A program made the position numbers and the translations under genes. From positions 160,001 through 224,000 of the IMG/VR virus record IMGVR_UViG_3300002092_001784: a DNA stretch of 64,000 nt; one strand, 5' to 3'. A model generated the notes under the pieces. That model saw only the letters and a list, made by a program, of their open reading frames with translations. It searched no databases and was not told the DNA's origin. Origin of the DNA: a virus (lineage: Duplodnaviria > Caudoviricetes). Positions 2,505 to 40,660 of the stretch are shown here, one piece after another; the stretch's first letter is position 1; each line of letters starts with the position of its first letter.

Positions 2505-2518
2505 TATTTCAAATGTAT

Positions 2519-3158: not shown

Positions 3159-3162
3159 TTTC

Positions 3163-3218: not shown

Positions 3219-3267
3219 AATATCAGTTTGAGAGAGTTCATTATTTATTTCACTAATATTCATTTTT

Positions 3268-3558: not shown

Positions 3559-3573
3559 TTAAAAAACGAAATT

Positions 3574-3945
3574 ATGAAACATCTATTTGTCCCTTATGAG
3601 TTGGCGGTTAAACTCAAAGAAAAAGGGTTTGATGAAGAGTGTCTTGGATATTTTGATGTTGATAAAGGTTATACTTTAGGATATTATTTATGTTATCGTG
3701 AAGAAAGTTTTAATAGTTTCTTGTCTGAAGGGATAGCAGCTCCTCTTTATCAACAAGTATTAGATTGGTTAAGAGAAAAGCATGATATTCATATAGAGTT
3801 ACCAACAGGCGGGCATCCTAAAAAATATTATGTTTTTGTCCATAAAATGGATGGTGGGTGGATATATGAAGGTAATAATCAGAAGGAATTTGATTATTAT
3901 GATGGGTTGGAAGCAGGTATTAACGAAGCATTAAAACTTATTTAA
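3574..3945 (+). CDS. conserved-type phage hypothetical protein
   Basis: YELAVKLKEKGFDEEC...APLYQQVLDWLREKH pattern recalled from Bacteroidota phage proteins (not database-verified). Confidence 0.7.
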   Translation: MKHLFVPYELAVKLKEKGFDEECLGYFDVDKGYTLGYYLCYREESFNSFLSEGIAAPLYQQVLDWLREKHDIHIELPTGGHPKKYYVFVHKMDGGWIYEGNNQKEFDYYDGLEAGINEALKLI

Positions 3946-3946
3946 T

Positions 3947-4183
3947 ATGGAATGTCACAAAATAGAACGATACGAAAACGGTAGACCGGTATACCGATTG
4001 AAGAAAAAATTCAATACTTTGGATGAAGCCATTGCACAAGCAAAGTATGTTAATTCCGGAGAGTTTGTAATCCACAAAGTAGTAGCCTATAAATGTAAAG
4101 TATGTTTGAAGTATCATTTGGGCAGAAACGGAAAATTACTGACAGATAAACAAAGATTAAAATACAAATTAGAACATTGTTAA
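3947..4183 (+). CDS. small zinc-binding protein
   Basis: YKCKVCLKYHLG motif. Confidence 0.65.
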   Translation: MECHKIERYENGRPVYRLKKKFNTLDEAIAQAKYVNSGEFVIHKVVAYKCKVCLKYHLGRNGKLLTDKQRLKYKLEHC

Positions 4184-4235
4184 CAATTTCTTAACATTAA
4201 AAATTTGGAAATCCGTACTAAATGTAGTATATTTG
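4180..4235 (+). promoter_or_regulatory. TTAACA-N5-TTAACA box + Bacteroidota sigma70 promoter
   Basis: TTAACA 4180/4191, TTTG 4204-4207, 20-nt spacer, TATATTTG 4228-4235. Confidence 0.8.
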
Positions 4236-7663: not shown

Positions 7664-7885
7664 ATGATTGTAGAGAAATCAAAAAAGAAACAAAAACGGA
7701 TTGAAATTGACTTATCCGGTCCAGAAGGTAACGCATTTGTATTGTTATCTTACGCCCGACGTTGGTGCAAAGATTTGGGTATGGATTATGAACCGTTACG
7801 AAAGGAGTTAACTACATGTGATTACAGTCATTTACTGAACACATTGGATAAACATTTTGGAAAATATGTAATCTTCTACAAATAG
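7664..7885 (+). CDS. conserved-type phage hypothetical protein
   Basis: AAAGTTATG at 7664; IDLSGPEGNAFVLL motif. Confidence 0.7.
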   Translation: MIVEKSKKKQKRIEIDLSGPEGNAFVLLSYARRWCKDLGMDYEPLRKELTTCDYSHLLNTLDKHFGKYVIFYK

Positions 7886-7889
7886 TAGG

Positions 7890-8234
7890 TTATTTATTTT
7901 CTATATCATCTATGATTTCATCAACATCCTTTTCGATATGTGCGGTTTGTTGTTCTATTTTCATAGAAAGTTCTTCGATTTTTGCTATCACTTCGTCTGT
8001 CCGTTTACCACTTAACTTTGAAGTATAACCCAAAACAGGAAGAGCAACACCTTGGAAAAATACAGAAATGATATACTGTATCCATCCTACTAAATTTGTG
8101 GGTTGATTAAAGTATAATGGTACTAATACCATTAATGTAATTATCCAAAACATTGTCATACTCGATAACGAGTCTGATAATATTTCTGCTAATTTATCCA
8201 TTGCTTTATTTAATTTGCCAATAATATTTTTCAT
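7890..8234 (-). CDS. membrane protein, DUF1003-like
   Basis: MKNIIGKLNK...; two TM helices then coiled coil; own ATATTTATA motif at 8250-8258 (-). Confidence 0.6.
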   Translation of the reverse strand: MKNIIGKLNKAMDKLAEILSDSLSSMTMFWIITLMVLVPLYFNQPTNLVGWIQYIISVFFQGVALPVLGYTSKLSGKRTDEVIAKIEELSMKIEQQTAHIEKDVDEIIDDIENK

Positions 8235-8249
8235 AGTGTATAAGTTTAC

Positions 8250-8258
8250 TATAAATAT
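8250..8258 (-). promoter_or_regulatory. candidate late promoter ATATTTATA
   Basis: TATAAATAT on + strand, 15 nt upstream of minus-strand ATG 8234. Confidence 0.55.
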
Positions 8259-8292
8259 TATTTTTACTATCAAACCTTTAATTAAAAAAAAA

Positions 8293-8550
8293 ATGAAAAA
8301 TAAATTGAGTTATGTATTTTCGTTAATAATTGTAGTTGCTTTGTTTACAGCTTGCGATTCATACCCATCTGCCGTAGTTTTGGTGGGTCATCAAAATCTT
8401 ATTGTCTATAAATCCGAACGGATTACCAATCCTAAAAATGGTGATTATAAATATGCTGTAACCGATGCCAGTGGGTACGGTTGGACGTTATATTCATTCG
8501 ATAAATACAGTATCGGTGATACGTTATATATTTCAAACAAAAAACGATGA
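8293..8550 (+). CDS. putative lipoprotein
   Basis: MKNK-hydrophobic-LFTAC lipobox. Confidence 0.65.
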   Translation: MKNKLSYVFSLIIVVALFTACDSYPSAVVLVGHQNLIVYKSERITNPKNGDYKYAVTDASGYGWTLYSFDKYSIGDTLYISNKKR

Positions 8551-8888
8551 AAGAAATAACAACAAAAATTACAGATTACAAACATTGTTATGTATGTGGT
8601 TCATCCGAAAAACGAAGTGGTGATTCTTTACACATATGGGATATAGAATACCAGTGTGGGTGTCGTTTAGTGGGTGCACTTGGTGACCCCACCGATTATG
8701 TGGAAATACCATGTCCGAATGAAACAAAAACATCGGAAGAATGGAGTAAAGAAGTTAATTATAAGATACTCGATCCCGATGGGTGGGATAGAAGTAATTG
8801 GCAATATTCTTTTTATGAACAACTAATTACACGTGAAGAATTTGATAACAGGTTGTTTCAGTCAACAATAGAAGGACGTATTTCTTAA
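8547..8888 (+). CDS. hypothetical protein with N-terminal Cys cluster
   Basis: CYVC...CGC; C-terminal ILDPDGWDR motif. Confidence 0.65.
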   Translation: MKEITTKITDYKHCYVCGSSEKRSGDSLHIWDIEYQCGCRLVGALGDPTDYVEIPCPNETKTSEEWSKEVNYKILDPDGWDRSNWQYSFYEQLITREEFDNRLFQSTIEGRIS

Positions 8889-8940
8889 CAATTTCTTAAC
8901 ATTAAAAATTTGGAAATTCATACTAAAAGTAGTATATTTG
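8885..8940 (+). promoter_or_regulatory. TTAACA-N5-TTAACA box + Bacteroidota sigma70 promoter
   Basis: TTAACA 8885/8896, TTTG 8909-8912, 20-nt spacer, TATATTTG 8933-8940. Confidence 0.8.
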
Positions 8941-8981
8941 AATATTGAGTTTTGATAGTGTTTAATCTTAATACCAAAAAT

Positions 8982-9350
8982 ATGAGTACTTTGAATTTCA
9001 GTGATTTGACCGGAAAGTTGGTTGATGTGGTTGTTTCTGTTGGTAATTTATCAGATGTAAAAAACCTAAAGGTCTGTAAGGTTAAGGCCCGTTCGTTGTT
9101 ATTTATCGAAGTTGATAGAACAAATCGTAAAAACATCTTCCGCAAGGTGGCTATTAAAGATGTAGTAGGGTTTTTTAACTCAAATACCGAAACTCCGGTC
9201 ATCTCCATTAAAAAAGATGTCATTCCAACCAAATGGGAATCGGAGTGGGGCACAATCGGTACATTTTCACCATCGATAGTGAATAACCAACAGAGGGTGG
9301 GTCAATTTACAGGCCGTTCATATCGTAAAAGCCGTTTTTACGGTAGGTAA
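8982..9350 (+). CDS. hypothetical protein
   Basis: ATG 8982 (MSTLNFSDL) downstream of promoter. Confidence 0.7.
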   Translation: MSTLNFSDLTGKLVDVVVSVGNLSDVKNLKVCKVKARSLLFIEVDRTNRKNIFRKVAIKDVVGFFNSNTETPVISIKKDVIPTKWESEWGTIGTFSPSIVNNQQRVGQFTGRSYRKSRFYGR

Positions 9351-9397
9351 TTTTTTGTTTTAATCATTATGAAATTGTTTAACTTATATCACATATT

Positions 9398-9700
9398 ATG
9401 AAATATTTTGTACCGTTTATTTGGAGATTGATTGTTGTTTTGACTTTCTGTACTTTTGTGTTAATTTTATCAATACCATTTTTAATATTAGCTACTCTAT
9501 GGAATTTTAATCCAAAACAAAATTGGAAATGGTTTAAGGGTGATATGATTGATACTCCATTTATGATTCAAGACTCATTTGAATATTATGCCGAATGTGT
9601 TCTTTATGAACGTGGAGTAGTTACTGAAGAGCCAAAACGTTGGAGGTACAACTCTCCTATGGATTATTTATTTGGTAGAAAAACATATATATCTGAATAA
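9398..9700 (+). CDS. membrane protein
   Basis: Long N-terminal hydrophobic segment. Confidence 0.6.
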   Translation: MKYFVPFIWRLIVVLTFCTFVLILSIPFLILATLWNFNPKQNWKWFKGDMIDTPFMIQDSFEYYAECVLYERGVVTEEPKRWRYNSPMDYLFGRKTYISE

Positions 9701-9717
9701 CACTAAAATATAATACT

Positions 9718-9876
9718 ATGGATAATTATGAATTAATATACGAATTGCAAGATAAAATTATTGATTTGAAAAATCTTATAATAGAACTAAATTTGGAGAA
9801 TCAGTATCTAAAATCCCAAAATGAGCAGTTGAAATCGCAACTTACAACCGAACGGTGTATGAAATCTAATAAATAA
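9718..9876 (+). CDS. small coiled-coil protein (52 aa)
   Basis: MDNYELIYELQDKIIDLKNLIIELNLENQYLKSQNEQLKSQL heptads. Confidence 0.55.
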   Translation: MDNYELIYELQDKIIDLKNLIIELNLENQYLKSQNEQLKSQLTTERCMKSNK

Positions 9877-9881
9877 ATACT

Positions 9882-10082
9882 ATGAAAAATATTGAAGTTG
9901 GAACAAAGTTTGAAAATAATAATGGTGACCAGTTTGAAATCACATATGTATCACCGGCTAAATTTAGTTTGAAAGCAAAAAATGTAAGAACACAAATACC
10001 ATATTCATTTTTGTGGTCGGACAAGTTTGATACATTCGTTATGGAAACCAATGCAAAAGTTCAATTAGGAAATTTAATTTAA
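9882..10082 (+). CDS. hypothetical protein
   Basis: ORF track. Confidence 0.65.
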   Translation: MKNIEVGTKFENNNGDQFEITYVSPAKFSLKAKNVRTQIPYSFLWSDKFDTFVMETNAKVQLGNLI

Positions 10083-10095
10083 TTAAAACTGTTAT

Positions 10096-10446
10096 ATGAA
10101 TTTACAATTTAAGTCAGCTGATAAAAAGTTTAATACACCGTACGCAAAGTATCTAAACATTATTATACAGGAATCGTTTACAGATACATTCCCATCTATG
10201 GTTCGTATTGGTAGAGCCCCTGCTTATGCAAAACATCTAATCGGTAAGAGGTATATTGATTTGGAAAAGGCAATCAAAGTCATTGATGCGGTTTACTCCG
10301 AACACCTTATTTCAAAGAATAGAAAAACAGCTTATAAGGATTTGGTTGAGTTGGGTATTGAATCTGATAGTATAACCGAATATGTACCTATCATTCCAAA
10401 GATAGATTATTCACAAACCGTAGTTAGTAGTTCACCTATTGACTAA
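10096..10446 (+). CDS. hypothetical protein
   Basis: ORF track. Confidence 0.7.
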   Translation: MNLQFKSADKKFNTPYAKYLNIIIQESFTDTFPSMVRIGRAPAYAKHLIGKRYIDLEKAIKVIDAVYSEHLISKNRKTAYKDLVELGIESDSITEYVPIIPKIDYSQTVVSSSPID

Positions 10447-10609
10447 TACGTTATGTATAACCTGCAGTTTATCAGTAAGTTAACTATATTTTATATATAA
10501 ATTCTTACTAAACTGCAAGCTATGCATTTATTTTACCAGAAAATTGTTATTTAACATAATAAGTTATAGGTTTTCAAAAACCTATACATTAAAGCCATAA
10601 CCTATAATT

Positions 10610-11038
10610 ATGAAATTGACCGTAGAATTAGTCCCAAGAACTGCTTGGTATTCTAACGTTCGTTCTAATGTGTCTACCAAAGAGTGGGATAGACTTAGAC
10701 GTAAGTGTTACGAGCTTGCAAATCGTCGTTGTGAAATTTGTAAAGGTGTCGGAACTAAACACCCAGTAGAATGTCATGAGACTTGGCAATATGATGATAC
10801 CAATCATATTCAAAAACTTATAGGGTTAATAGCGCTATGTCCCAACTGTCATAAAGTCAAACATCCGGGTCTTGCTCAAATGAAAGGGGAAACGAAGCTC
10901 GTAGAGCAACAATTAATGAAAGTTAATGGGATTACTTACTCCGAAGCGATAACCGTTATAAATGAGGCATTTAAGCAATGGGAGCGACGTAGTATGTATG
11001 ATTGGAAGTTGGATATTAGTTACTTAGATACTTATTAA
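10610..11038 (+). CDS. HNH endonuclease family protein
   Basis: CEIC...VECHETW...IALCPNCHKVKH. Confidence 0.8.
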   Translation: MKLTVELVPRTAWYSNVRSNVSTKEWDRLRRKCYELANRRCEICKGVGTKHPVECHETWQYDDTNHIQKLIGLIALCPNCHKVKHPGLAQMKGETKLVEQQLMKVNGITYSEAITVINEAFKQWERRSMYDWKLDISYLDTY

Positions 11039-11039
11039 T

Positions 11040-11351
11040 ATGAATAAAATAGCACAAATATTTAATGCTTGGAAAATCTCATATAACCCAACCGATGAAC
11101 AATCCGAATTGGCAGCTGCCCGTATGGAAATATGCGACAGATGTGAATATAAAACCCAAGCTACTATATATGTACCATATACACATTGTAACCAATGCTA
11201 CTGTAAATTAGATAAAAAGGTATTCTCAACCGATACAGAATATACGCCCGATACAAAATATCAAACATGTCCGAAAGGATTTTGGGCAGATGTAGAGAGG
11301 ACATGGAGTTTGAAAAACAGTAAGAAGAAATACGATAGTTTGAAAAAGTAA
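11040..11351 (+). CDS. Cys-rich zinc-binding protein (DUF6171-like)
   Basis: RMEICDRC...CNQCYC...CPKGFW. Confidence 0.55.
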   Translation: MNKIAQIFNAWKISYNPTDEQSELAAARMEICDRCEYKTQATIYVPYTHCNQCYCKLDKKVFSTDTEYTPDTKYQTCPKGFWADVERTWSLKNSKKKYDSLKK

Positions 11352-11359
11352 TATTTATT
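11351..11359 (+). promoter_or_regulatory. candidate late promoter ATATTTATT
   Basis: Immediately before ATG 11363. Confidence 0.45.
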
Positions 11360-11362
11360 AGC

Positions 11363-11674
11363 ATGATACGATTAACCGAACTACTGAATGTTAACTTTAA
11401 TAAAGTAAATTGGACTAAACAGTCTGAAAACGATAAGGCTATTATCTATAATATAATGATTAATGGACGTACCGGTGGTCGTATTATTTACGATAAAGCT
11501 CGTAAAATCTACATAGCTACAATGGAAAACTCAGATAATACGTTTCAACCTAAAAGTTTTAAGTCTAAAAAAGATGCAATTACTTATATGAGTTCATTTA
11601 GTGTGTTCTCAAATCCAATTACGGTTATGGGTGGTAGTGAAGAACCATCATATCAATCATATGCAGGTACTTGA
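11363..11674 (+). CDS. hypothetical protein
   Basis: MIRLTELL-type start; ORF track. Confidence 0.65.
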   Translation: MIRLTELLNVNFNKVNWTKQSENDKAIIYNIMINGRTGGRIIYDKARKIYIATMENSDNTFQPKSFKSKKDAITYMSSFSVFSNPITVMGGSEEPSYQSYAGT

Positions 11675-11700
11675 TTAATAAAAAAAAAGAATATAAAAAC

Positions 11701-11728
11701 AAAAGGGAGTAAATAACTCCCTTTTTTT
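11701..11728. terminator. bidirectional intrinsic terminator
   Basis: AAAAGGGAGT-aaata-ACTCCCTTTT between convergent genes. Confidence 0.8.
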
Positions 11729-11984
11729 AGTCTGTAATCCGTACACCATTATATGGTTTGATAAACTGAAGAAATGCTTTACCTGTTGAATCAGAATCTC
11801 TAAATGCTTCGTAACTTTCAATTTTTACGTTATCATATTGATATTCAGCGATTGGTGCTCCTTCTCTTTTCTTAAAAGTTACAACTAATTGATTATTTTT
11901 TAAGTTCATTACTGAATTTTCAATCATAGATGAATCGTATGTAACCAGTTCTACAATACCTACCGTTTCTACTGCTTTTTTCAT
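11727..11984 (-). CDS. KTSC domain protein
   Basis: SSMIENSVMN...LVVTFK...YQYDNV...YEAF...STGKAF pattern. Confidence 0.7.
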   Translation of the reverse strand: MKKAVETVGIVELVTYDSSMIENSVMNLKNNQLVVTFKKREGAPIAEYQYDNVKIESYEAFRDSDSTGKAFLQFIKPYNGVRITD

Positions 11985-12014
11985 ATCTTTAGTTTTTCAT
12001 AGTTATATTTCTTA

Positions 12015-12046
12015 CAAAGATACAAAAAATATTTCACATTTCCAAA
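12015..12046 (-). promoter_or_regulatory. Bacteroidota sigma70 promoter for KTSC gene
   Basis: Minus strand TTTG, 20-nt spacer, TATCTTTG. Confidence 0.75.
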
Positions 12047-12059
12047 TATATAGGCAAGA

Positions 12060-12083
12060 AAAAGGGAGTTAATCACTCCCTTT
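12060..12083 (-). terminator. intrinsic terminator
   Basis: AAAAGGGAGT-taatc-ACTCCCTTT, near-copy of 11701-11725. Confidence 0.75.
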
Positions 12084-12109
12084 AACCGAAACCTTATGAT
12101 TTAATTTAT

Positions 12110-12916
12110 TTAGTATTTAGTTCCACAATGTGGGCAGAACTTATAAGATGCTTTTTTAACTTTAGCACCACATTCAGTACAGTAATTTTTTATATCATCG
12201 GATTGATATACTTTCTGTGACATTGGTAAAATTTTCCAAGTTACAATACTATCTGTATGGTGAAGAAATGACCGATTTGAATTTACAAAATGTTGGTCCG
12301 ATTTTTCACCTTTATCAATAATGCCCGTTTCAACTTTGGGTGTTGATGGTGCTGATCTTAAATCCTTATTGAAAAATGTCTTACTATCACATAATAACGA
12401 GTTGGATGATAGCGTATTATTTTTTATTGAATTGATGTGACAATCATTGGTTGTCGTAAACGATGCTACCCCACCAATAAAACCTCCCGTATTTGTTGTA
12501 TATATTGGGTAGTTGGTATAAGTAATCGCACCTACATATGGATTTGAAGTTGGTACATATTCATCAAAAAATTCAATTTGAACATTACCGTTTTCAGATA
12601 TAGCTATAAATGCCTCAACTGTACTATCCACTTCGTAAGTATGGAATACGAATTTATTATTACTATCCAAAAATCTTTCCAAAAATATTCGTTCAGCAGG
12701 ACGTAAAACGATACCACCGCCAGATATATACTGACCGTTTATCTTAATTTGAGCTAAAATGTGAATGTGTTTTGGATTGTATAATTCGATTGTAAATGTA
12801 TCCGAATCTTTCAAGTAAACGGTATTACCGAATTGTTTTAATCTTTGCTTAAATTCGTTGGCAATAAAAGCAGATGGTTTTTTAAGGGATACCCCATCCC
12901 AAATTGATTGTTTCAT
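12110..12916 (-). CDS. conserved-type phage protein with C-terminal zinc ribbon
   Basis: C-terminal YCTECGAK...FCPHCGTK. Confidence 0.7.
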   Translation of the reverse strand: MKQSIWDGVSLKKPSAFIANEFKQRLKQFGNTVYLKDSDTFTIELYNPKHIHILAQIKINGQYISGGGIVLRPAERIFLERFLDSNNKFVFHTYEVDSTVEAFIAISENGNVQIEFFDEYVPTSNPYVGAITYTNYPIYTTNTGGFIGGVASFTTTNDCHINSIKNNTLSSNSLLCDSKTFFNKDLRSAPSTPKVETGIIDKGEKSDQHFVNSNRSFLHHTDSIVTWKILPMSQKVYQSDDIKNYCTECGAKVKKASYKFCPHCGTKY

Positions 12917-13022
12917 AATTATTTCTCCTTATTTTTTAATTGTATATAAACTTTTATTCGTTGGCCTTTCTCCAACTCAAATGTCACAAAGGACACTAAA
13001 GGTTTAACCACAAGGTTTCATA

Positions 13023-13031
13023 TATAAATAT
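13023..13031 (-). promoter_or_regulatory. candidate late promoter ATATTTATA
   Basis: TATAAATAT on + strand, about 105 nt upstream of ATG 12916. Confidence 0.5.
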
Positions 13032-13066
13032 ATAGTAGTTATAGAAAACGACAGATTATTGGACAT

Positions 13067-13101
13067 AAAAAATGGGTATATTTGAAAAAAACATACCCAT
13101 T
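13067..13101 (-). terminator. intrinsic terminator after ompA-like gene
   Basis: AATGGGTAT/ATACCCATT stem with A-run on + strand. Confidence 0.6.
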
Positions 13102-13121
13102 CTTAAAATATTAAAAAATCC

Positions 13122-14258
13122 TTACTGAATAATAACAGATTCGGTTCTACGATTTAATGCATGCTCAGCTTCTGTACATTTAACACCATCTTTACATTTG
13201 TTAACCAATTGGGTTTCACCAAATGCTTGAGCGTTAATTCGATTTACACTAATACCTTTACCCACTAAATAATCGATAACAGATTTACCACGTTTTTCTG
13301 AAAGTTTCATATTGTAGTTTGCCGGTCCTCTTGAATCCGTATGAGATTTAATACTTACATTTACAGTAACATCTTCTTTTAGGTTAGATGCCAAACTGTC
13401 CAAACTTGCAGTAGCTTTATCTGTTAAATTCCATTTATCAAATGCAAAATACACTTTGTATTTATTTCCCAATACAGATGGTTTTACCACCGGTGCTGGA
13501 ATTGGCTTAGGTTCGGGTTTAGGTTCTGGCTTTGGTTGTATCGCTTTTGGCAGTTCAACTATTGGTGCTGCAACTTTTTTGTGAGGTATTACAAAAGATA
13601 TACCTACATAATTGTAAAGTTTTGTACCATACGTTGTAGTCCTTGCGGAGTTTTCAGAAGTTCTACCATCTAATCTATCAGTGTTAACCCAACTCCATTG
13701 AGTACCGATATTAAGCTTAACCGTTTCTGTTAATTTGATACCAATACCCACTCCTAATGGAATTACTGGAAATTCAGTTTTAGTTCCTGTTGTGATTCCC
13801 ACTTTATTATTTAAGTGAGCTATACCCAAGCCAACCTTTCCGTATAGGTAAAGATTTCTATCAAACTTATTTGCGGATAGCAGATTATTGATATTCCATA
13901 CTGAGTTCAAATCATACTCATTTACCAATGTTCTAAAATTAGGTTCACTGTACGGTGTATCAAATCCGTGATAGTTCGTACCCGGTAATAGTGTATTTTG
14001 ATTCCAATTCAGTTCTAATGCAAATGTATGATTAAAATTCTTTTTTACATTAGCCCCAAATCCAATACCCGCTTGGCTATCCCAATCGTAGGTTGAATGT
14101 GATTTTAGTCCATTGAATTGATATTCTCCGGAATAATTGGCAACTCCACCATTTACTCCAATTTCCCATTTATTAAATGGTTCGGTGTTTGTTTTATCTT
14201 GTGCTGATAAAAAATTGAATGAAAGCAATAACGCAATCATAAAAAACAGTTTTTTCAT
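13122..14258 (-). CDS. ompA: OmpA-family outer-membrane protein (beta-barrel + Pro-rich linker + OmpA C-terminal peptidoglycan-binding domain)
   Basis: Signal peptide; alternating beta strands; (PK/PE)n linker; YFAFDK, SHTDSRG...YNMKLSEKRGKSV, CKDGVKC, ALNRRTE. Confidence 0.9.
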   Translation of the reverse strand: MKKLFFMIALLLSFNFLSAQDKTNTEPFNKWEIGVNGGVANYSGEYQFNGLKSHSTYDWDSQAGIGFGANVKKNFNHTFALELNWNQNTLLPGTNYHGFDTPYSEPNFRTLVNEYDLNSVWNINNLLSANKFDRNLYLYGKVGLGIAHLNNKVGITTGTKTEFPVIPLGVGIGIKLTETVKLNIGTQWSWVNTDRLDGRTSENSARTTTYGTKLYNYVGISFVIPHKKVAAPIVELPKAIQPKPEPKPEPKPIPAPVVKPSVLGNKYKVYFAFDKWNLTDKATASLDSLASNLKEDVTVNVSIKSHTDSRGPANYNMKLSEKRGKSVIDYLVGKGISVNRINAQAFGETQLVNKCKDGVKCTEAEHALNRRTESVIIQ

Positions 14259-20720: not shown

Positions 20721-21200
20721 ATGAAAGACAATTTGACAAGAGGGTTTCCCACCCGTATTAATAGGGATGAGTTTCTTACACCATTCGATACAATTTTCGA
20801 TAGGTTTTTCAACGAAAGTTTCCCACAACTTTCAAAAGAGGTTGGTGTAAATGTGTTTCAATCATCATCGTATCCAAAATGTGATTTCATAGATTATGAT
20901 GATAGAATAGAAATCATAGCAGAGATTCCCGGATTATCTAAAGAGCAAATCGCAATTGATGTTGATGGTGATCAAGTTTCAATCAAAGGAAACAAATCAC
21001 AAACTTCACCGATGAAAGAAGGTGGAACTGTATTACATAGAGAATTAAAAAAATCTACATTCCAGCGTTCATTTATGGCGGATTCTAAGATATTTAACTT
21101 GGATAAAATTTCCGCAAAATTCAGTGATGGGATGCTTGAATTAGTAATTCCTAAAAGAGAAAAAGTAGTTCCGACTAAACGAATAATCGAAATCCAATAA
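20721..21200 (+). CDS. small heat-shock protein (Hsp20/alpha-crystallin)
   Basis: AEIPGLSKEQI, HRE...FQRSF, AKFSDGMLELVIPK. Confidence 0.92.
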   Translation: MKDNLTRGFPTRINRDEFLTPFDTIFDRFFNESFPQLSKEVGVNVFQSSSYPKCDFIDYDDRIEIIAEIPGLSKEQIAIDVDGDQVSIKGNKSQTSPMKEGGTVLHRELKKSTFQRSFMADSKIFNLDKISAKFSDGMLELVIPKREKVVPTKRIIEIQ

Positions 21201-21474: not shown

Positions 21475-22518
21475 ATGAATTGGCTTAAATATTTAGTAGG
21501 ATTTTCCGCACTTCTTGTAGCAGGATGTGCGGCATTTTTTTCTGTAAGTGGGCTTGGTGTGTTATTTAGTGGCGCATCTATGGCGGTTATGGTAATGGCG
21601 GGTTCGTTGGAATTTGCCAAATTAGTGGCTGCAACTTATCTGAAACAAACGTGGGATACTATTAAAGGATTTAATAAATGGTATTTAACTTTGGCAGTTG
21701 GGTTACTAATGTTAATTACATCTGCCGGTATCTTTGGTTATCTTTCAAATGCCTTCCAACAACAAAATATAAAGTTGGAGCAAGTGGAGAGGGAGATTTC
21801 AGTATATGATACTAAAATAAAACAAAATGAGAGTGAGATTGCAAGATACACTGAACAGTTGAAAAACTTACAGCAAATTCGTAATTCTCAGGAATCAAAC
21901 ATATCAAAGATAGTAGATAAGAATGGTTCAACTTCACGTTTGTCACAAATGGTGGGTTCTGCTGATAAGGAATTAACATCAATTTCGGCAAAAATAAATA
22001 CGCTTACAGATACCAACAATAAAAATTTTGAAAAAATAAATGAAATAAAAAATACTAACATTGATTTGGAAAAGGAAGTTGGGGGATTTAGATTTGTAGC
22101 CAAAGCCTTCAATGCCGATTTGAATACCGTTGTTAAGTTTTTTATATTTCTAATTGTATTTGTATTTGACCCATTGGCAATCGCACTCATTATAGCATTT
22201 AACGGGTTGATTGGTACAAATTTAACAAAATCTGAAATTCCCATTGAACCATCGGATGATATTAAGAGGTATAGAGTATATGGTGAAAGAGAATCAGATA
22301 AAACCGATGCTGAGATTCTTTTGGATACCATTGATAACCCAATCGAACCAAATGATGAGTTAAAAGCAGCAGCTGAAGAATATCAAAATGAAACGGAGGA
22401 GGTATCTACTCAACCAGAAGTGTGGCCTGATATACAAACAACACCGGCCGAAGAACCCGCAGTAAAAAAAAAATTGAAGAACCCACTGAAGGGCATAGTG
22501 AATTGGTTTCACCGTTAG
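21475..22518 (+). CDS. multi-pass membrane protein with long coiled coil (short form; see frameshift finding)
   Basis: Three N-terminal TM helices, coiled coil, TM FIFLIVFVFDPLAIALII, acidic tail. Confidence 0.75.
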   Translation: MNWLKYLVGFSALLVAGCAAFFSVSGLGVLFSGASMAVMVMAGSLEFAKLVAATYLKQTWDTIKGFNKWYLTLAVGLLMLITSAGIFGYLSNAFQQQNIKLEQVEREISVYDTKIKQNESEIARYTEQLKNLQQIRNSQESNISKIVDKNGSTSRLSQMVGSADKELTSISAKINTLTDTNNKNFEKINEIKNTNIDLEKEVGGFRFVAKAFNADLNTVVKFFIFLIVFVFDPLAIALIIAFNGLIGTNLTKSEIPIEPSDDIKRYRVYGERESDKTDAEILLDTIDNPIEPNDELKAAAEEYQNETEEVSTQPEVWPDIQTTPAEEPAVKKKLKNPLKGIVNWFHR

Positions 22519-22799
22519 ATGGTTTAACTCAAGACTTCTCACGTAGAGCGATTGATATTGATGGCAATGGAATCATAGATGGTTATGATACGAATGGTGA
22601 CGGTATTATAGATGAAATACAGACATTTAGTTCAGCAAGATATGGATATGTTGAGCATGAAAAACCATATTACGCCCGCCCTAACTTTGATTGGAGTAAT
22701 ACCGAAGGGTGGATACACAACCAAAATGCAGTGAATTATTGGATAACCCATATCAGACCTCACATATATCCTACTGATTTTACATCAAAAACTTATTAA
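22464..22799 (+). CDS. EF-hand-like (DxDxDG) segment, probable -1 frame continuation of 21475 gene
   Basis: Open -1 frame from A10 run: KKKIEEPTEGHSELVSPLDG...DIDGNGIID...DTNGDGIID; only TTG start at 22503 if independent. Confidence 0.6.
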   Translation, partial: KKKIEEPTEGHSELVSPLDGLTQDFSRRAIDIDGNGIIDGYDTNGDGIIDEIQTFSSARYGYVEHEKPYYARPNFDWSNTEGWIHNQNAVNYWITHIRPHIYPTDFTSKTY

Positions 22800-22801
22800 A
22801 C

Positions 22802-22857
22802 TTAACAATTTTTTAACATTGAAAGCTTGGATTTTCCAAGCTTTTTTTGTATCTTTA
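22802..22857 (+). promoter_or_regulatory. TTAACA-N5-TTAACA box + Bacteroidota sigma70 promoter
   Basis: TTAACA 22802/22813, CTTG 22826-22829, 20-nt spacer, TATCTTTA 22850-22857. Confidence 0.78.
22822..22848 (+). terminator. intrinsic terminator embedded in promoter
   Basis: AAAGCTTGGA-ttt-TCCAAGCTTT plus T-run. Confidence 0.65.
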
Positions 22858-22899
22858 AGTATTGATTTGAGAGAGATATTAACCACAAAAATAAAAGTT

Positions 22900-23100
22900 A
22901 TGATAAAATTTATAAAAAGGATAATAAAACAGTACATCACTTGTAAACACGAACAGTATAAAGTGATACGAAAAATAATGTGTGTTGGCGAATCATACCA
23001 ACCTAAATGGTTGGATGTCTGTAAATGTAAAATTTGTAGTAAAGAATATTACTCCGATTATTACTATGAATATGGTAACGAAAAACACTATGTTAAATAA
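22900..23100 (+). CDS. small Cys/His-containing protein
   Basis: AAAGTTATG at 22900; CKH...CKCKIC. Confidence 0.65.
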   Translation: MIKFIKRIIKQYITCKHEQYKVIRKIMCVGESYQPKWLDVCKCKICSKEYYSDYYYEYGNEKHYVK

Positions 23101-23116
23101 TATTGGTCATAACGAT

Positions 23117-23172
23117 TTAACAATTTCTTAACATTAAAAATTTGGAAATCGTTAATAAATGTGTTATATTTG
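23117..23172 (+). promoter_or_regulatory. TTAACA-N5-TTAACA box + Bacteroidota sigma70 promoter
   Basis: TTAACA 23117/23128, TTTG 23141-23144, 20-nt spacer, TATATTTG 23165-23172. Confidence 0.8.
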
Positions 23173-23214
23173 AATATCAGTTTGAGAGTTGTTAATCACT
23201 AAAAATTTTGAGTT

Positions 23215-23397
23215 ATGAAAGTTTCAGTTTCCAAAAGAACCAAATCAGTTAAGGGTAAAGAATCTTATGAATCAGTTGCAGCTAAGTTCGGTTTCAAAAA
23301 ACCGGTCTACCAAAAGTACATTATCATCAACGGTGTTCCCCACAAAGCTACGGCTGAAGGTTTAGTTCCATTAACCAAAGTTGTTAAATCCATTTAA
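23215..23397 (+). CDS. small basic protein
   Basis: GAGTTATG start after promoter. Confidence 0.65.
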   Translation: MKVSVSKRTKSVKGKESYESVAAKFGFKKPVYQKYIIINGVPHKATAEGLVPLTKVVKSI

Positions 23398-23407
23398 TTT
23401 TATTGTT

Positions 23408-23587
23408 ATGAAAAGAGAAGAAATTTTGAGTGTATTGGAAACATTATCACATTCACAGGGATTTTATAGTGGGATTATGCGTGGTTATTATAGAGCAACC
23501 GAAGAACAACGTGATGAGTTCCTTTCCGGATTGGAAGAACAGAATTTTGGTGGACCTGTTGATTTAGTTATGTATTTGGAATGTTAA
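23408..23587 (+). CDS. conserved-type phage hypothetical protein
   Basis: MKREEILSVLETLSHSQGFYSG...DLVMYLE. Confidence 0.65.
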   Translation: MKREEILSVLETLSHSQGFYSGIMRGYYRATEEQRDEFLSGLEEQNFGGPVDLVMYLEC

Positions 23588-23632
23588 AAAAAGAAATCTA
23601 TCAATGTATTACTAACTTTAATTAGAAACAAA

Positions 23633-23794
23633 ATGGATAAAGAGAACAAAATTGCGGAAAACCCAAAAACAGGCAATGATTTTATAGCCGATGTTAGTAG
23701 TATGTTAGTTGCTAACGGACTACCTGCTTTTGGTACAAAAGAATTTAATTATATGTGTAGTCAGTTTTTTGGTGGAAACCCTAAAAGCAACTAA
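23633..23794 (+). CDS. cassette-fusion peptide (53 aa) reading across an attC-like right arm
   Basis: MDKENKIAENPKTGNDFIAD-V-SSMLVANG...PKSN*; GAT GTT at the putative crossover. Confidence 0.5.
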   Translation: MDKENKIAENPKTGNDFIADVSSMLVANGLPAFGTKEFNYMCSQFFGGNPKSN

Positions 23795-23805
23795 TTAGTG
23801 CTAAC
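23693..23805. mobile_element. putative gene cassette with self-complementary ends
   Basis: GTTAGTAGTATGTTAGTTGCT (23693-23713) vs reverse complement of AGCAACTAATTAGTGCTAAC (23786-23805). Confidence 0.5.
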
Positions 23806-23829
23806 GATTGTAAATAAAAAAATAAAAAT

Positions 23830-24033
23830 ATGATTAAAGAACTTAAAATTGGGGACAAGGTTAAACTTGAAGGTTATGATGAAGCTTGGATAGGGTGGGT
23901 TACAAATTCTTCATATCAAATTAGTAAGATAAAAAGTAGGTTTGATGAAAACGGTAAAATATCAGTAGGTTGGTTGCTGAAGAATTTGGAAGTGCGTTGG
24001 GTTTCAAAGGAGGAGTGGCACTATAAAAATTAA
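23830..24033 (+). CDS. hypothetical protein (putative cassette gene)
   Basis: Flanked by GCTAACG (23800) and CATATAACG (24039) left-arm motifs. Confidence 0.65.
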   Translation: MIKELKIGDKVKLEGYDEAWIGWVTNSSYQISKIKSRFDENGKISVGWLLKNLEVRWVSKEEWHYKN

Positions 24034-24038
24034 TATTT

Positions 24039-24170
24039 CATATAACGGTCACAGATATATGTAGTTTTTCTTAAATTGAAACATAAAACTTAAATAAAAA
24101 TGGAAGAAGTAAATAAGAACACAGAAGTTGATAACACGGATAAAAAATTACATATATCTGATGTTATATG
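24039..24170. repeat. attC-like imperfect inverted repeat (132 bp)
   Basis: CATATAAC-ggtca-CAGATATATGTAGTTTTT ... AAAAAATTACATATATCTG-at-GTTATATG. Confidence 0.7.
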
Positions 24171-24333
24171 CAGTGTTTGTGGAGGAAAAAATATCCAAAT
24201 CACAGAACACAAAAAGATAACTGGGCCACCCGCAGGAACAAAAAGAAATCCACATAGAAAAACGACTTATGGATATTTTTTTAAGAGATATACTTGTGAA
24301 TGCGGCAGTGTGTGGGAAGAAAAGGAAAGTTAG
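24100..24333 (+). CDS. zinc-ribbon protein whose N-terminus is encoded in the attC-like loop
   Basis: MEEVNKNTEVDNTDKKLHISD-V-ICSVCGG...CECG. Confidence 0.7.
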   Translation: MEEVNKNTEVDNTDKKLHISDVICSVCGGKNIQITEHKKITGPPAGTKRNPHRKTTYGYFFKRYTCECGSVWEEKES

Positions 24334-24357
24334 TGTGATTGGAACATTGTATATAAC
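24163..24357. mobile_element. putative gene cassette with self-complementary ends
   Basis: GTTATATGCAGTGTT (24163-24177) vs AACATTGTATATAAC (24343-24357): 13/15 complementary. Confidence 0.55.
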
Positions 24358-24471
24358 TCATCGCTACACGCAATAATACCTAAGATTATATATCATGAAA
24401 TCAATCAATTATACCATTGAAATTAATTAAAATCATGAAACAAATTCATAAACTCATAAATTTGAATTAAA

Positions 24472-24678
24472 ATGGGATATTTAGTCGAAAAACAAATATT
24501 AAGCGGATTTGCGTTCCATCCTATGAATGCGGTGGATAGCTGGGAACAAAAAGAAAATAAGTTGTCAGTTGAAGATGCAAAGAAATCCGCTATTGAATAC
24601 GCAACTAAAATTGAAAAAGGTAAATACAGAGTAAGGGATATTTATTCCGGCAAAGTGTTGTTTGAAGTATCTTCGTAA
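24472..24678 (+). CDS. hypothetical protein
   Basis: ORF track. Confidence 0.6.
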   Translation: MGYLVEKQILSGFAFHPMNAVDSWEQKENKLSVEDAKKSAIEYATKIEKGKYRVRDIYSGKVLFEVSS

Positions 24679-24720
24679 GTATTTACAGCGAATACCTAAA
24701 TCAGAATGTCCATTTGATTC

Positions 24721-24776
24721 TTAACAATTTCTTAACATTAAAAATTTGGAAAGCTAAATTAAAAATAGTACCTTTA
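24721..24776 (+). promoter_or_regulatory. TTAACA-N5-TTAACA box + Bacteroidota sigma70 promoter
   Basis: TTAACA 24721/24732, TTTG 24745-24748, 20-nt spacer, TACCTTTA 24769-24776. Confidence 0.78.
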
Positions 24777-24817
24777 GGTATTGATTTGAGAGAGTTATTA
24801 ATTTTAATTTTGTTATT

Positions 24818-25027
24818 ATGAATACTGATTTTTTGAATACATTGAGTGGTGTTGATAAGGTTCTGTACAAATCGGCTTATCAGTTTACCGAACGGTATTG
24901 TAACGGAACTCCAGAAGAGTGTCACGCTGAAGGTCTTAAAAAAATTAAAGATACCCACAAATTGGCTTCTAAAAAAGAAGTTTGGGTAGATATTACCACC
25001 GGTCGTAAAGTTAGAGGCCAATTTTAA
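24818..25027 (+). CDS. hypothetical protein
   Basis: ORF downstream of promoter. Confidence 0.65.
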   Translation: MNTDFLNTLSGVDKVLYKSAYQFTERYCNGTPEECHAEGLKKIKDTHKLASKKEVWVDITTGRKVRGQF

Positions 25028-25052
25028 TTAAAATAATTATTAAAAATAAATC

Positions 25053-25092
25053 AATCCGGTATTGTTTATATCGGATTTTTTTTGTATATTTG
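25053..25092 (+). promoter_or_regulatory. overlapping terminator hairpin and sigma70 promoter
   Basis: AATCCGGTAT-tgttt-ATATCGGATT plus T-run; ATTG 25061-25064, N20, TATATTTG 25085-25092. Confidence 0.65.
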
Positions 25093-25115
25093 TATTAATC
25101 AATAAATCATAAAAT

Positions 25116-26009
25116 ATGAATTTAGGATATGCTTGCATAAATATGACAATGGGTAAAACGGTTACTACCAATCGTTCAATGGTTAAACGTACATTCAATC
25201 TAAGGGGACTGGATTATGTTTCCGAACTTACACTACTCAATGCAAAAGATATTATTAAAATATTGCAATGGAATCTTAAAAATAGTATTAAATTTTTCCG
25301 ATTATCATCTGCCATTGTACCGTGGGGTGATAAGTTAGATTTAACACAACTAAAAGATTACAAACAAATTTCGGATGCACTTAAAAAAGCCGGTGATTTC
25401 GCAACTCAAAACGATATTCGTATCACATCGCACCCCGGTCCGTTTGTAGTGCTTGTTTCACCAAACGAAACAGTTGTTGACAACGCAATCGCAGATTTGG
25501 AAATGCACGGTAAAATATTCGATATGATGGGGTTATCCAAATCAGTTTACAATAAGATTAATATCCATTGTAACGGTGTTTACGGAGATAAGTTATCAGC
25601 AATGGATAGATTCTGCACTAACTACCAAAGGTTATCAGAATCGGTTAAAACACGTCTTACTATTGAGAATGATGATAAAGCATCAATGTATTCTGTGGCA
25701 GACCTTATGTATATCCACAATAAAATAAAAATCCCTATTGTGTTTGATTATCACCATCACCAATTCTGTACCGGTGATTTATCAGAAGAGGCAGCATTAT
25801 CACTTGCTGTTTCAACGTGGCCGGACGGTATCACACCTGTTGTTCACTATTCAGAAAGTAAATCATCACACGAAAACAATACAAAGTTAAAACCACAAGC
25901 ACATTCAGATTATATCAAATCATTACCAAACACCTACGGTAATTCAGTTTCGATTATGGTGGAAGCAAAAGCTAAAGAACTTGCAATATTACCGTTTATA
26001 AAAAAATAA
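25116..26009 (+). CDS. uvsE: UV DNA damage endonuclease (UvsE/UVDE)
   Basis: LGYACIN, FFRLSS, HPG, TIENDD, FDYHHH, HYSES, QAHSD, VEAKAKE. Confidence 0.95.
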   Translation: MNLGYACINMTMGKTVTTNRSMVKRTFNLRGLDYVSELTLLNAKDIIKILQWNLKNSIKFFRLSSAIVPWGDKLDLTQLKDYKQISDALKKAGDFATQNDIRITSHPGPFVVLVSPNETVVDNAIADLEMHGKIFDMMGLSKSVYNKINIHCNGVYGDKLSAMDRFCTNYQRLSESVKTRLTIENDDKASMYSVADLMYIHNKIKIPIVFDYHHHQFCTGDLSEEAALSLAVSTWPDGITPVVHYSESKSSHENNTKLKPQAHSDYIKSLPNTYGNSVSIMVEAKAKELAILPFIKK

Positions 26010-26012
26010 ATT

Positions 26013-26210
26013 ATGAGTAAAAAAATAAAATATAGTGTTGATTGTTATATTCCTGGACAACATCATAGTAATATAATAGAATGTAGAGAAATGGCAATAT
26101 ATGGAGGGGCATATACTTTTTGGGATTGTGAATATGGTGAAACAAATAGACTAATAGCCTCGTACCCGATAATGTTTACGATTATTGAAAATACGGAAAC
26201 CGATGAATAA
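26013..26210 (+). CDS. hypothetical protein
   Basis: ORF track. Confidence 0.6.
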   Translation: MSKKIKYSVDCYIPGQHHSNIIECREMAIYGGAYTFWDCEYGETNRLIASYPIMFTIIENTETDE

Positions 26211-27459
26211 TTTAGATAAAAAATACACCGATTTACTTCAAGATATTTTGGATAACGGTGTTAAAAAAGAAGATAGAACTGGTACTGGTACTATATCAGT
26301 GTTTGGAAGACAAATAAGGCATAAAATGTCTGAAGGATTTCCTTTGCTAACTACCAAAAAGATGTATTTCAAAGGTATTGTAACCGAACTACTATGGTTT
26401 TTGCGTGGAGATACAAATATTGAGTATTTGGTTCATAATGATTGTCACATATGGGATGGGGATGCCTATAAGAGATACGTTAAAGAAAATCAATTTAACT
26501 CAAATGCAAAATGGTTGAAACCTGTACTGTTAGAAAATGGACATTATGGAGCAGATTTATATACAAAAGAAGAATTTATCAACAAAATAAAAACCGATAA
26601 TGAATTTGCTGAGGAATGGGGAGAACTTGGACCAGTGTATGGGAAGCAATGGCGAAAATGGGAAAGGTATGGTCATAGGGGGGTTCAGAATGGAGCATTG
26701 GACTGTGGATTTATTACCCAAGAAGATGTCGATAAAGAAATGTATATAGATCAAATCGCAACCCTAATCAACGACCTTAAAACAAATCCCGATAGCAGAA
26801 GATTGATGGTTAATAGCTGGAACGTAGGTGAAATTGACCAAATGGTTTTACCACCATGTCATTACGGATTTCAATGTTACACTAGAGAGTTGAGTCACAA
26901 AGAAAGGTGTGATTTATTTGGACATAATGATGATCCAAACCGAAAAGACTCTTATTCCAAATGGTTGGATGATAACGGATTTCCGAAAAGAGCTATCTCT
27001 TTAATGTGGAATCAACGTTCAGTAGATACACCATTGGGACTTCCATTCAATATAGCATCTTATGGGTTACTACTTACTATGATTGCCGATGAAGTTAATA
27101 TGGTGACTGATGAAGTTATTGGTAATTTAGGGGATTGTCACATATACCTTAACCAAATCGAAGGTGTTAAAGAACAAATTGGACGTGAATTTACATTAGA
27201 AGAACGAATTGATATGGCATCTAAATGTAACGGTTTTGACCCGTTTGATTTTGGTATTGGAGAACATAGAACTAACGCAATTCAAAAATATCATGACCAT
27301 GAAGTTTGTGATGCTTATGAAGTTCCCCGACGAACAAGAGAACCATATCCATTACCAACCGTTAAAGTTCAAGATGGTATAGAGTGTTCATCTATTAATG
27401 ATGTAATATTATTGGATTATAAATCACATCCAACAATTAAATTTCCTTTAAGCAACTAA
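26203..27459 (+). CDS. thyA: thymidylate synthase (with family-variable insertions)
   Basis: DRTGTGT, ELLWFLRG, GELGPVYGKQWR, SRR, LPPCH, QRSVD, GLPFN; ATG 26203. Confidence 0.95.
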   Translation: MNNLDKKYTDLLQDILDNGVKKEDRTGTGTISVFGRQIRHKMSEGFPLLTTKKMYFKGIVTELLWFLRGDTNIEYLVHNDCHIWDGDAYKRYVKENQFNSNAKWLKPVLLENGHYGADLYTKEEFINKIKTDNEFAEEWGELGPVYGKQWRKWERYGHRGVQNGALDCGFITQEDVDKEMYIDQIATLINDLKTNPDSRRLMVNSWNVGEIDQMVLPPCHYGFQCYTRELSHKERCDLFGHNDDPNRKDSYSKWLDDNGFPKRAISLMWNQRSVDTPLGLPFNIASYGLLLTMIADEVNMVTDEVIGNLGDCHIYLNQIEGVKEQIGREFTLEERIDMASKCNGFDPFDFGIGEHRTNAIQKYHDHEVCDAYEVPRRTREPYPLPTVKVQDGIECSSINDVILLDYKSHPTIKFPLSN

Positions 27460-39316: not shown

Positions 39317-40660
39317 ATGGCAATACAGTTTTTCAAAGATATAGTTGATAGTAAAGGGTATCGAATAAGTTCAAAGGATAGATCAATCTTTGAAACTGCC
39401 GATTTACAATCATTCTTTGGGTTGAGTGATATGGATGCCATTGAGTTTGTATTATATGATGCAAACGATAATCAATTACCACAAGGTGATTATGGGTTGG
39501 TACGATATGTAACACTCAATACACAAAATATTTCAGATTACTTTTTAATAGCCGATGGTACTATATTTCAAGCTAATAAATTCCCAAGCGAATATTTTAT
39601 TGATGCTGAACGTTTAATAAATGAAGCCGGTTATGATAATGGTATTTTTAAGACTCAAATTACACTTATTAATAAGAGATTGGGTACTGAACAACCAAAT
39701 CGTAAAGTGTGGATTTCCGAAATATCACCATCAAGAACAGAGGTTAGAATATTACCACTAAAAAACGAAGAAAACAATCAAACTGATTTATACGAACGGT
39801 TTGGTATATTTCAAAGAGATGGCGAGTTCAGAGATGATACGTTAATTTACATATTGCATTTTATAGAAAAAATAAATCCTATGATAATAGGTACAACTAT
39901 AAAAGCAAGATATACAGAACAATGGTATAATAAATTATGTACAGAATATAAAATATCGAGTTTTGATCAGTTGGTTACGATTATCTATAATAAATTTATG
40001 GAGGCTGCACTTTATGAAATTACTAATAGAATTTCGGATATACGCAATTTGAATTATGGAAATCCTAAAACAACAAAACCATCTTTACAGTTAACTAAAG
40101 AGCAACTAAAGGCAATATATTTGGACATATTGATAAAATGTATTGATTATTATTTGGCTTATGCTGATTCTCAAGCATTTGCAACATATACATTATCTTT
40201 GGATTCAAGTATTGATGAAACACGACGTTTAATGCACAGAACAACAACATATAGTACATTTGAATCAAGTTCAAAACCACCGGATGTCGTAATTGAACAA
40301 AAACAAAGAGTATGCGATACTGATGATGATGCTGTTAAGAAATTTGCAAAAGATTGTGATGATGAATTTGGTCGTGATATTGATGTGGTTGTTGTTGATA
40401 AAGATACAAAAGTACCAATTTCTAAACATATTTCTACTAATACTAATATTAAATACTTCAAACCATCATTGCGTGGTGAACCTAGTGTAGAGGCACAGAG
40501 TACTGTAACAAAAATAGAAATACCAATGGTAAAAGGGGCAACTACTGGTGAATTTAGTTTATCAAATAATACATTAAATAGTATACTATCTGATAATTAT
40601 AATAGTGGCAGTATTGCGCAAGTTTTGAATAAAATAAAAGCAACTAATAACATAGTCTAA
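39317..40660 (+). CDS. putative structural protein
   Basis: ISEISPSRTEVRI motif; position in baseplate cluster. Confidence 0.6.
   Translation: MAIQFFKDIVDSKGYRISSKDRSIFETADLQSFFGLSDMDAIEFVLYDANDNQLPQGDYGLVRYVTLNTQNISDYFLIADGTIFQANKFPSEYFIDAERLINEAGYDNGIFKTQITLINKRLGTEQPNRKVWISEISPSRTEVRILPLKNEENNQTDLYERFGIFQRDGEFRDDTLIYILHFIEKINPMIIGTTIKARYTEQWYNKLCTEYKISSFDQLVTIIYNKFMEAALYEITNRISDIRNLNYGNPKTTKPSLQLTKEQLKAIYLDILIKCIDYYLAYADSQAFATYTLSLDSSIDETRRLMHRTTTYSTFESSSKPPDVVIEQKQRVCDTDDDAVKKFAKDCDDEFGRDIDVVVVDKDTKVPISKHISTNTNIKYFKPSLRGEPSVEAQSTVTKIEIPMVKGATTGEFSLSNNTLNSILSDNYNSGSIAQVLNKIKATNNIV

Follow-up and report, generated by a model that had tools for sequence, protein, structure and literature searches.

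Does the long imperfect inverted repeat at positions 24039–24170 of this 64-kb stretch of phage DNA (the window) serve as a recombination site, and if so, what does it move? A sequence-only reading had taken the repeat for a non-canonical attC-type site resembling those of integrons, with AAC and GTT core boxes, unequal unpaired spacers, a second stem and a large loop. From the analysis presented here, the hairpin is best explained as a recombination site that heads a single mobile gene cassette (24047–24357) within an integron-like system of giant freshwater phages, a reading to which a probability of about 0.68 is assigned. The hosts of these phages are probably Bacteroidota.

A re-reading of the letters of the window recovered the inverted repeat as claimed, together with each of the elements listed above. 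In a repeat search of the window, the two 18-nt arms of the inner stem are 94% complementary (17/18 paired), and the outer octamer CATATAAC (24039–24046) pairs with GTTATATG (24163–24170) at 8/8 positions. The left spacer is 5 nt in length, while the right spacer consists of the two bases AT between the end of the right arm (24160) and GTTA (24163–24166). When the entire window was scanned for 17/18 inverted repeats within 150 nt, this hairpin was the single one identified, and none was present in 60 first-order Markov shuffles of the window. The predicted fold has an energy of −28.6 kcal/mol as RNA (z = −3.27), −12.3 kcal/mol as + strand DNA (z = −1.4) and −11.1 kcal/mol as − strand DNA (z = −1.6); taken alone, these folding energies are modest and unremarkable. 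The right arm falls within an ORF of 77 aa (24100–24333) whose ATG sits in the loop. No second copy of the hairpin was found in the 266,153-bp virus record that contains the window and is rated complete. A scan of 22000–26500 against the Rfam families produced sub-threshold chance matches only. Against cultured-phage DNA, megablast returned zero matches and the sole blastn match was 96 nt to Cellulophaga phage phi17:1, in a different ORF. The features of the locus are collected in Table 1.

Table 1. Features of the hairpin and of the putative cassette, in window coordinates.
Feature	Position	Strand	Basis
End box of the preceding unit, ATT-TCATA-TAAC	24035–24046	+	Family consensus ATK-n5-TAAC
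TAAC core, putative crossover box	24043–24046	+	Homology breakpoints between loci at −1/0 and +4/+5
Left unpaired spacer, GGTCA	24047–24051	+	Family left spacer of 4–5 nt
Left arm of the inner stem, class A	24052–24069	+	17/18 pairing with 24143–24160; nearly invariant in 111 copies
73-nt loop: conserved 5' leader region, ATG at 24100, first 14 codons	24070–24142	+	Nucleotide-level conservation across loci
Right arm of the inner stem, codons KKLHIS	24143–24160	+	Pairing; widespread exact 26-nt core
GTTA core and start box (GTTA-n5-MGT) at the head of the cassette body; encodes D V I C S within the ORF	24163–24177	+	Pairs with 24343–24357
Cassette ORF P0001, 77 aa: 22-aa leader, then a CxxC...CxC small protein	24100–24333	+	
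End box of the cassette, AACATTGTATATAAC; TAAC at 24354–24357 is the putative right boundary	24343–24357	+	Pairing with start box
Putative mobile unit of 311 nt, comprising the hairpin, the ORF and the end box	24047–24357	+	Breakpoints in relatives

With the 77-aa protein as the query, 24 viral loci were identified, and most of the matches were confined to residues 1–25 with 56–92% identity. An alignment of the underlying DNA demonstrated that approximately 135 nt, from TAACG to GATGTTA, are conserved at the nucleotide level with unrelated sequence on both sides. At least 120 metagenome contigs carry an exact match to the 26-nt core of the right arm, as do 28 viral contigs and 2 from MAGs. The element, termed class A, has at least 138 distinct copies. 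All 138 are in frame with a small ORF, 135 of these ORFs being complete with lengths of 31–114 aa (median 77 aa), and indels within the leader are multiples of three. The parts that follow the leader belong to 79 unrelated clusters of small proteins. Conservation ends at ATK-n5-TAAC on the left and at GTTA-n5-MGT on the right. Since MGT specifies either Ser (AGT) or Arg (CGT), which are unlike residues with like codons, the constraint acts upon the nucleic acid. Within the present ORF, the right arm together with the GTT core is translated as DKKLHISDV; for the purpose of annotation, the nucleotide-invariant amino terminus MxxxNKNTExxxTDKKLHISDV reflects a DNA site rather than a protein domain. 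On one metagenome contig (L153), three class A copies lie approximately 285 nt apart: the whole unit of hairpin and cargo is tandemly duplicated, and a third hairpin with a different cargo follows.

The hairpin at 24039–24170 represents one class of a large hairpin family. A purpose-written finder identified approximately 390 hairpins with the order TAAC, spacer, stem, loop, stem, spacer and GTTA in 133 related phage and metagenome loci (786 kb), compared with 0–1 hairpins in shuffled genomes. The left spacer is 4–5 nt and begins with G in 370 of 393 hairpins, the stem is mostly 18–21 bp as extended by the finder, the loop ranges from 8 to 98 nt, and the right spacer is 1–2 nt. All of the hairpins lie on the gene strand. 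Of the 261 calls made on the minus strand, 258 are the same hairpins at lower scores because G·T pairs become A·C pairs. Among 172 distinct stems, three to five Watson-Crick or wobble-compatible pair types were observed at each of 11 positions, with all four Watson-Crick types at ten positions and three at position 6. Stem pairing is 67–99% Watson-Crick, falling to 26–56% with shuffled partners. The sequence-only reading had hinged upon related hairpins with conserved AAC and GTT boxes elsewhere, and these are both numerous and covarying. Approximately half of all hairpins, beyond class A as well, contain an ATG from which an ORF continues across both the right arm and the GTT. As a counterpoint to the recombination-site reading, stem sequences are highly conserved within classes, unlike those of most attC sites.

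The two ends of a cassette are complementary to each other. On average, the 12 nt after the GTTA of one site and the 12 nt before the TAAC of the next form 7.8 Watson-Crick pairs out of 12, and 54% of cassettes reach at least 10/12. Three controls (own flanks, the next-but-one site and random pairs) averaged 4.5/12 with 4–7% reaching at least 10/12. The end pairing includes a constant T·G pair in which ATK lies opposite MGT. When the ends were rejoined in silico, 206 of 239 cassettes folded better than they did in the array (mean of −20.1 vs −14.9 kcal/mol with DNA parameters), and the + strand was more stable than the − strand in 232 of the 239. For the present cassette, the start and end boxes are paired at 12/12 positions beyond the core, including three G·T pairs, and no other combination of GTTA and TAAC in 23100–24800 is above 8/12. 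Its rejoined ends have a predicted energy of −14.9 kcal/mol as + strand DNA, compared with −12.3 kcal/mol in place and −11.1 kcal/mol on the − strand.

Breakpoints of homology were collected from blastn matches between loci; a match had to span at least 250 nt, of which at least 100 nt lay outside of hairpins, with 80% identity or more. From this set, 134 match ends fall at TAAC (84 left, 50 right) and 19 at GTTA (10 left, 9 right), where chance would account for about 1–2% per class; 44 ends fall inside hairpins. With the bait, class A, left out, 70 ends remain at TAAC and 12 at GTTA. The TAAC breakpoints lie at offsets of −1/0 and +4/+5, a span of 5 nt, placing the junction inside TAAC(G). 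Loci L075 and L085 are 98–99% identical except for a difference of 1831 nt, equivalent to four or five units, that has ATAACG at both borders. Among 13 pairs of homologous cassette bodies, 10 share the upstream hairpin and none shares the downstream hairpin. Taken together, the breakpoints and the pattern of shared hairpins define the unit as hairpin, ORF and end box, so that the hairpin travels with the ORF downstream of it. While the expectation of site-specific breaks in gene content among relatives was borne out by the 134 ends, their position was not as first proposed. The breakpoint had been placed at the G/TT of 24163; the breaks occur at TAAC instead, which on the other strand is G|TTA.

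A candidate for the enzyme emerged from clustering of the neighboring ORFs. Of 134 loci, 20 carry a member of a single recombinase family, encoded on the hairpin strand and usually 0.25–3 kb downstream, and so the linked tyrosine recombinase that had been sought is found beside arrays in relatives. The protein is 265 aa in length with PF00589 (Phage_integrase) and SAM_4 domains. Around the recombinase gene in 15 loci, there are 77 hairpins upstream and 2 downstream. A hairpin-less TAAC-TATTATATAT site, which has no second arm, lies in front of the gene in 13 loci. In two large genomes, G001 and G004 (the latter of 288 kb, with terminal repeats), the sole tyrosine recombinase adjoins arrays of 4 and 5 hairpins, respectively. 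The best family matches of the recombinase are archaeal XerA, integron integrase and XerC/D, all of them under the cut-offs (on TIGR02249 it scores 148 bits, the cut-off being 265). Among solved structures, XerA and VchIntIA are its best relatives. Its catalytic residues can be aligned with those of IntI1; the IntI-specific insert of approximately 48 aa is absent, and for this reason the enzyme is not considered to be an integron integrase. The link between hairpins and enzyme is statistical since genomes without the recombinase retain hairpins (8 in G003, 5 in G005 and 1 in the genome of the present phage, G000).

The best plasmid homolog of the recombinase (347 aa, 45% identity, also without the IntI insert) is encoded by the Chryseobacterium plasmid NZ_CP041688 (L183). 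Within positions 7773–13571 of this plasmid, the recombinase gene is followed by five AAC..GTT hairpins of 125–140 nt that separate single genes. The flanks of these hairpins are complementary in the manner of cassettes, and, as in the canonical orientation, the antisense strand gives the better fold of these hairpins. Polaribacter phage Freya_10 was considered as a further example of the system and set aside: it encodes a 37% homolog of the recombinase with no TAAC hairpins near the gene. Among Polaribacter phages Freya_1 to Freya_10 (MT732463–MT732472), genome size ranges from 43,978 to 48,920 bp and the position of the integrase gene from 104 to 4201; from these shifts, the strains differ mainly in a block of small ORFs just upstream of the recombinase homolog, and this block yielded no TAAC hairpins.

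The 266-kb genome of the present phage contains one such cassette, 24047–24357, and no tyrosine recombinase (PF00589) anywhere, which disposes of the earlier suggestion that the recombinase would be encoded elsewhere in the phage and is a counterpoint to the preferred reading. The cassette is accordingly either a stranded copy or one that is served in trans by a co-infecting relative. No hairpin follows the end box. The cassette ORF belongs to no Pfam family and has a weak match to one PHROG of the function-unknown type.

The cassette sits in a run of small ORFs that starts at a host-type promoter, TTTG-N20-TATATTTG, near 23140–23170. The upstream ORF P0002 has no relatives among viral contigs. 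The units of P0002 and P0004 were considered as decayed cassettes and rejected with end pairing of at most 8/12, not above background. The amino terminus of P0004 (53 aa, 23633–23794), MDKENKIAENPKTGNDFIADVSS, resembles the class A leader, including its DV-x-x-S ending, and may represent a decayed cassette head, with end pairing at background level as noted. Outside of the window, at G000:93870, a second TTG-n5-TAACGGTTG-TAATATAT motif lies directly 5' of an ATG with no right arm; it may be a half-site like that preceding the recombinase gene of relatives. Other genes in the vicinity of the cassette encode an Hsp20 family protein (20721–21200), a UvdE UV endonuclease (25116–26009) and a thymidylate synthase of 424 aa (26185–27459) that exceeds its family profile in length. 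The window also contains two very long ORFs, 40660–45624 (1654 aa) and 55536–63998 (at least 2821 aa, running off the window).

Five DNA sequencing runs matched the phage, four with at least 90% of sampled words and one with 5%; no RNA run did. Contigs assembled from four freshwater runs take a single unbroken path over the cassette with no variant, in assemblies where rare forms would not show, and one unitig covers 23340–24747 without a variant at the cassette. No recombination product or junction was seen at the cassette, which weighs against the preferred reading. A direct repeat, AACAATTTCTTAACATTAAAAATTTGGAAA, is present at 23117–23150 and 24719–24752, and its first copy is followed by a promoter of the Bacteroidota type (TTTG, 20 nt, TATATTTG). 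Contig depth at the repeat is 5–15 times that alongside, so that the repeat must be common to many phages in the samples, and assembly paths branch there. The few assembly joints at this repeat have sides of less than 35 nt and were read as repeat artifacts.

From these data, a mechanism may be proposed in which the folding of a single strand, the position of the cut, catalysis by the linked enzyme and a circular intermediate are all extrapolated from patterns in the DNA. A single-stranded + strand would fold into the inner stem, the unpaired spacers of 5 and 2 nt, and the outer stem. A Xer/IntI-like tyrosine recombinase of the relatives would then cut within TAA|C at two successive sites. In the circle so released, the end box 24343–24357 would pair with the start box 24163–24177, completing an outer stem of 15 bp. 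Re-entry of the circle would take place at the TAAC of a further hairpin or at the site before the recombinase gene, where TAAC has no hairpin. The expected circular junction would have the end box ...TGTATATAAC joined to GGTCACAGATATATG..., and the expected empty site would read ...TTTCATATAAC joined to TCATCGCTACACG.... Viewed on the opposite strand, the arrangement would have the geometry of an integron, with a recombinase, an attI-like site, cassettes bearing a 3' site and crossover at G|TTA. The ORFs are inverted with respect to this geometry, and every site consequently stands in front of its gene. The class A site additionally supplies a start codon and a 22-residue leader. The attC-type reading survives in substance with respect to the logic of the site; its crossover box lies instead on the AAC side of the given strand, and the enzyme is not IntI. 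A point against the model is the presence of 79 unrelated cargos on one hairpin class, which requires either some exchange at the GTTA side or another route by which cassettes are made.

A different account, considered unlikely, is that of a PeSL-like regulatory cassette that ends or stabilizes the upstream message and starts the next gene, shuffled by homologous or illegitimate recombination with no dedicated enzyme. Such a cassette would be in keeping with the placement of every hairpin before a small accessory ORF, the start codon carried by about half, the restriction to the gene strand, the persistence of hairpins in genomes without a recombinase, and the modular shuffling and mini-circles that PeSLs are known to mediate (PMC2839356, PMC4122927). 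Recombination of this kind would be expected to spread breaks over the 60–130 nt of shared sequence, and the observed breaks are instead concentrated in a 5-nt core (134 vs 44 inside hairpins). It also assigns no role to end complementarity that is specific to each cassette, does not account for polar arrays that end at a recombinase gene, and sits poorly with a genome that has one copy and no repeated motif. Host-type promoters (TTTG-N19-21-TAnnTTTG) occur nearby, but there is none within 24035–24177. A more general promoter idea was also rejected: TTG-n4-6-TAAC..TATAT is not enriched in the genome, with 5 found and 6.3 expected.

Slightly less probable again is an RNA structure on the message, with an inner stem and an outer stem around the ORF that control translation or serve as RNase III-type processing sites dividing a polycistronic transcript into stable units, and with the cassette pattern the product of selection for intact units. 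The G·T pairs of the sense strand are equally consistent with an RNA structure, wobbles compatible with G·U being tolerated on that strand only, and the z-score of the RNA fold, the ATG within the loop and the location of the element inside an apparent operon agree with such a role. Processing at a stem at 24163–24177 would, however, cut within the coding sequence, changes in the class A left arm occur without compensation in the right arm, and there is no Rfam match. This account also leaves unexplained the retention of the hairpin beside the ORF that follows it, the polarity with respect to the recombinase, and the hairpin-less TAAC site before its gene. An inverton, a palindromic element moved by an HUH transposase or a chance repeat is highly improbable: while a start codon is flanked by inverted repeats and the ends are sharp with terminal inverted repeats, the loop was inverted at 0 junctions compared with 99 normal left junctions (in 2.2 Mb of assemblies, which hide minor forms), the 73-nt spacing is very short for inversion, the genome has one copy and no recombinase, no HUH (Y1) transposase was found in five genomes, and chance is excluded by the shuffles and by conservation.

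Returning to the cassette reading, a broader proposal is that Bacteroidota-type giant phages run a mirror-image integron composed of an I2-less Xer-like recombinase, folded + strand hairpins and a site that doubles as an expression head; the odds of this are judged to be about even. As an expression head with a leader region, an ATG and a 22-aa leader, the site could take up an ORF that lacks a start codon and have it expressed as a fusion. For integrons, an IntI-specific domain is thought to be needed for acting on folded single strands. If a plain Xer-type enzyme serves the same site logic, then either the chemistry arose twice or the IntI-specific domain is dispensable. The system would explain how tiny orphan genes are exchanged with base-pair precision among large phages of the virulent type, and it offers an approach to how cassettes and their sites are made. 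If true, these phages draw on a common stock of small accessory proteins that can be exchanged rapidly and may serve in host takeover or counter-defence, and the 79 families of cargo on one site class would be a natural place to seek host-takeover and anti-defence proteins.

With respect to known systems, the linked enzyme is most closely related in sequence and structure to the Xer recombinases (archaeal XerA and XerC/D). XerCD can act on the folded single strand of a phage, as in the case of the CTX phage. The dif site is a single 28-bp double-stranded site for chromosome resolution, and Xer/dif differs from the present system in having no array of hairpins between genes.

Literature searches found no published description of these phage hairpin-cassette arrays. 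The PeSLs of T4-type phages share short conserved hairpins before small orphan genes in the variable regions of large phages, and a tie to gene shuffling and mini-circles (PMC2839356, PMC4122927). They differ in that their recombination is homology-based, with no breakpoints at core boxes, cassette-specific end pairing or dedicated recombinase. Many copies, each with a terminator stem-loop and a host-type promoter, are the hallmark of PeSLs, unlike the single copy in this genome. CALINs and lone attC sites that lack an integrase have been described in virulent phages, including Polaribacter phage P12002L (Qi et al. 2023, PMC9892861). In common with the present phage, these genomes have attC-like sites with no integron integrase nearby. 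The phage CALINs were found with the canonical attC model and are recombined by IntI1, and their likeness to the present hairpins is by description; a phage-encoded recombinase, a mirror orientation or an embedded leader is not described for them (PMC9892861).

The comparison with integrons is the most extensive. Integron integrases use the I2 helix insert to act on folded single strands (PMC7790495). The phage-linked recombinase differs in having no such IntI-specific insert and in scoring under every integron-integrase cut-off. The phage site is 5' of its ORF, the ORFs are inverted relative to the polarity of the site, and the crossover does not fall at the G|TT of the 3' box on the given strand, agreeing with integrons only when read on the opposite strand. 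The outer stem is 12–16 bp rather than 7, and the asymmetric spacers of 4–5 nt vs 1–2 nt depart from the canonical attC, whose extrahelical bases were not identified in the phage hairpins. The sites also carry start codons and leaders, and the host of the cassettes is a virus. Against these differences, the phage sites resemble integron attC sites in layout, with core boxes of AAC and GTT, a pair of imperfect stems, a variable loop and a spacer left unpaired, and in both systems one strand folds better than the other. In both, a cassette begins with bases that can pair with the box preceding its own AAC and not with the flank of a neighboring site, the crossover is confined to the core, and one repeat family serves many unrelated ORFs. 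Among the relatives only, a polar array abuts a tyrosine recombinase with a simple site beside its gene. The closest likeness is to the sequence-homogeneous repeats of approximately 125 nt in sedentary chromosomal integrons, such as that of Vibrio cholerae (PMC8876359, PMC7790495).
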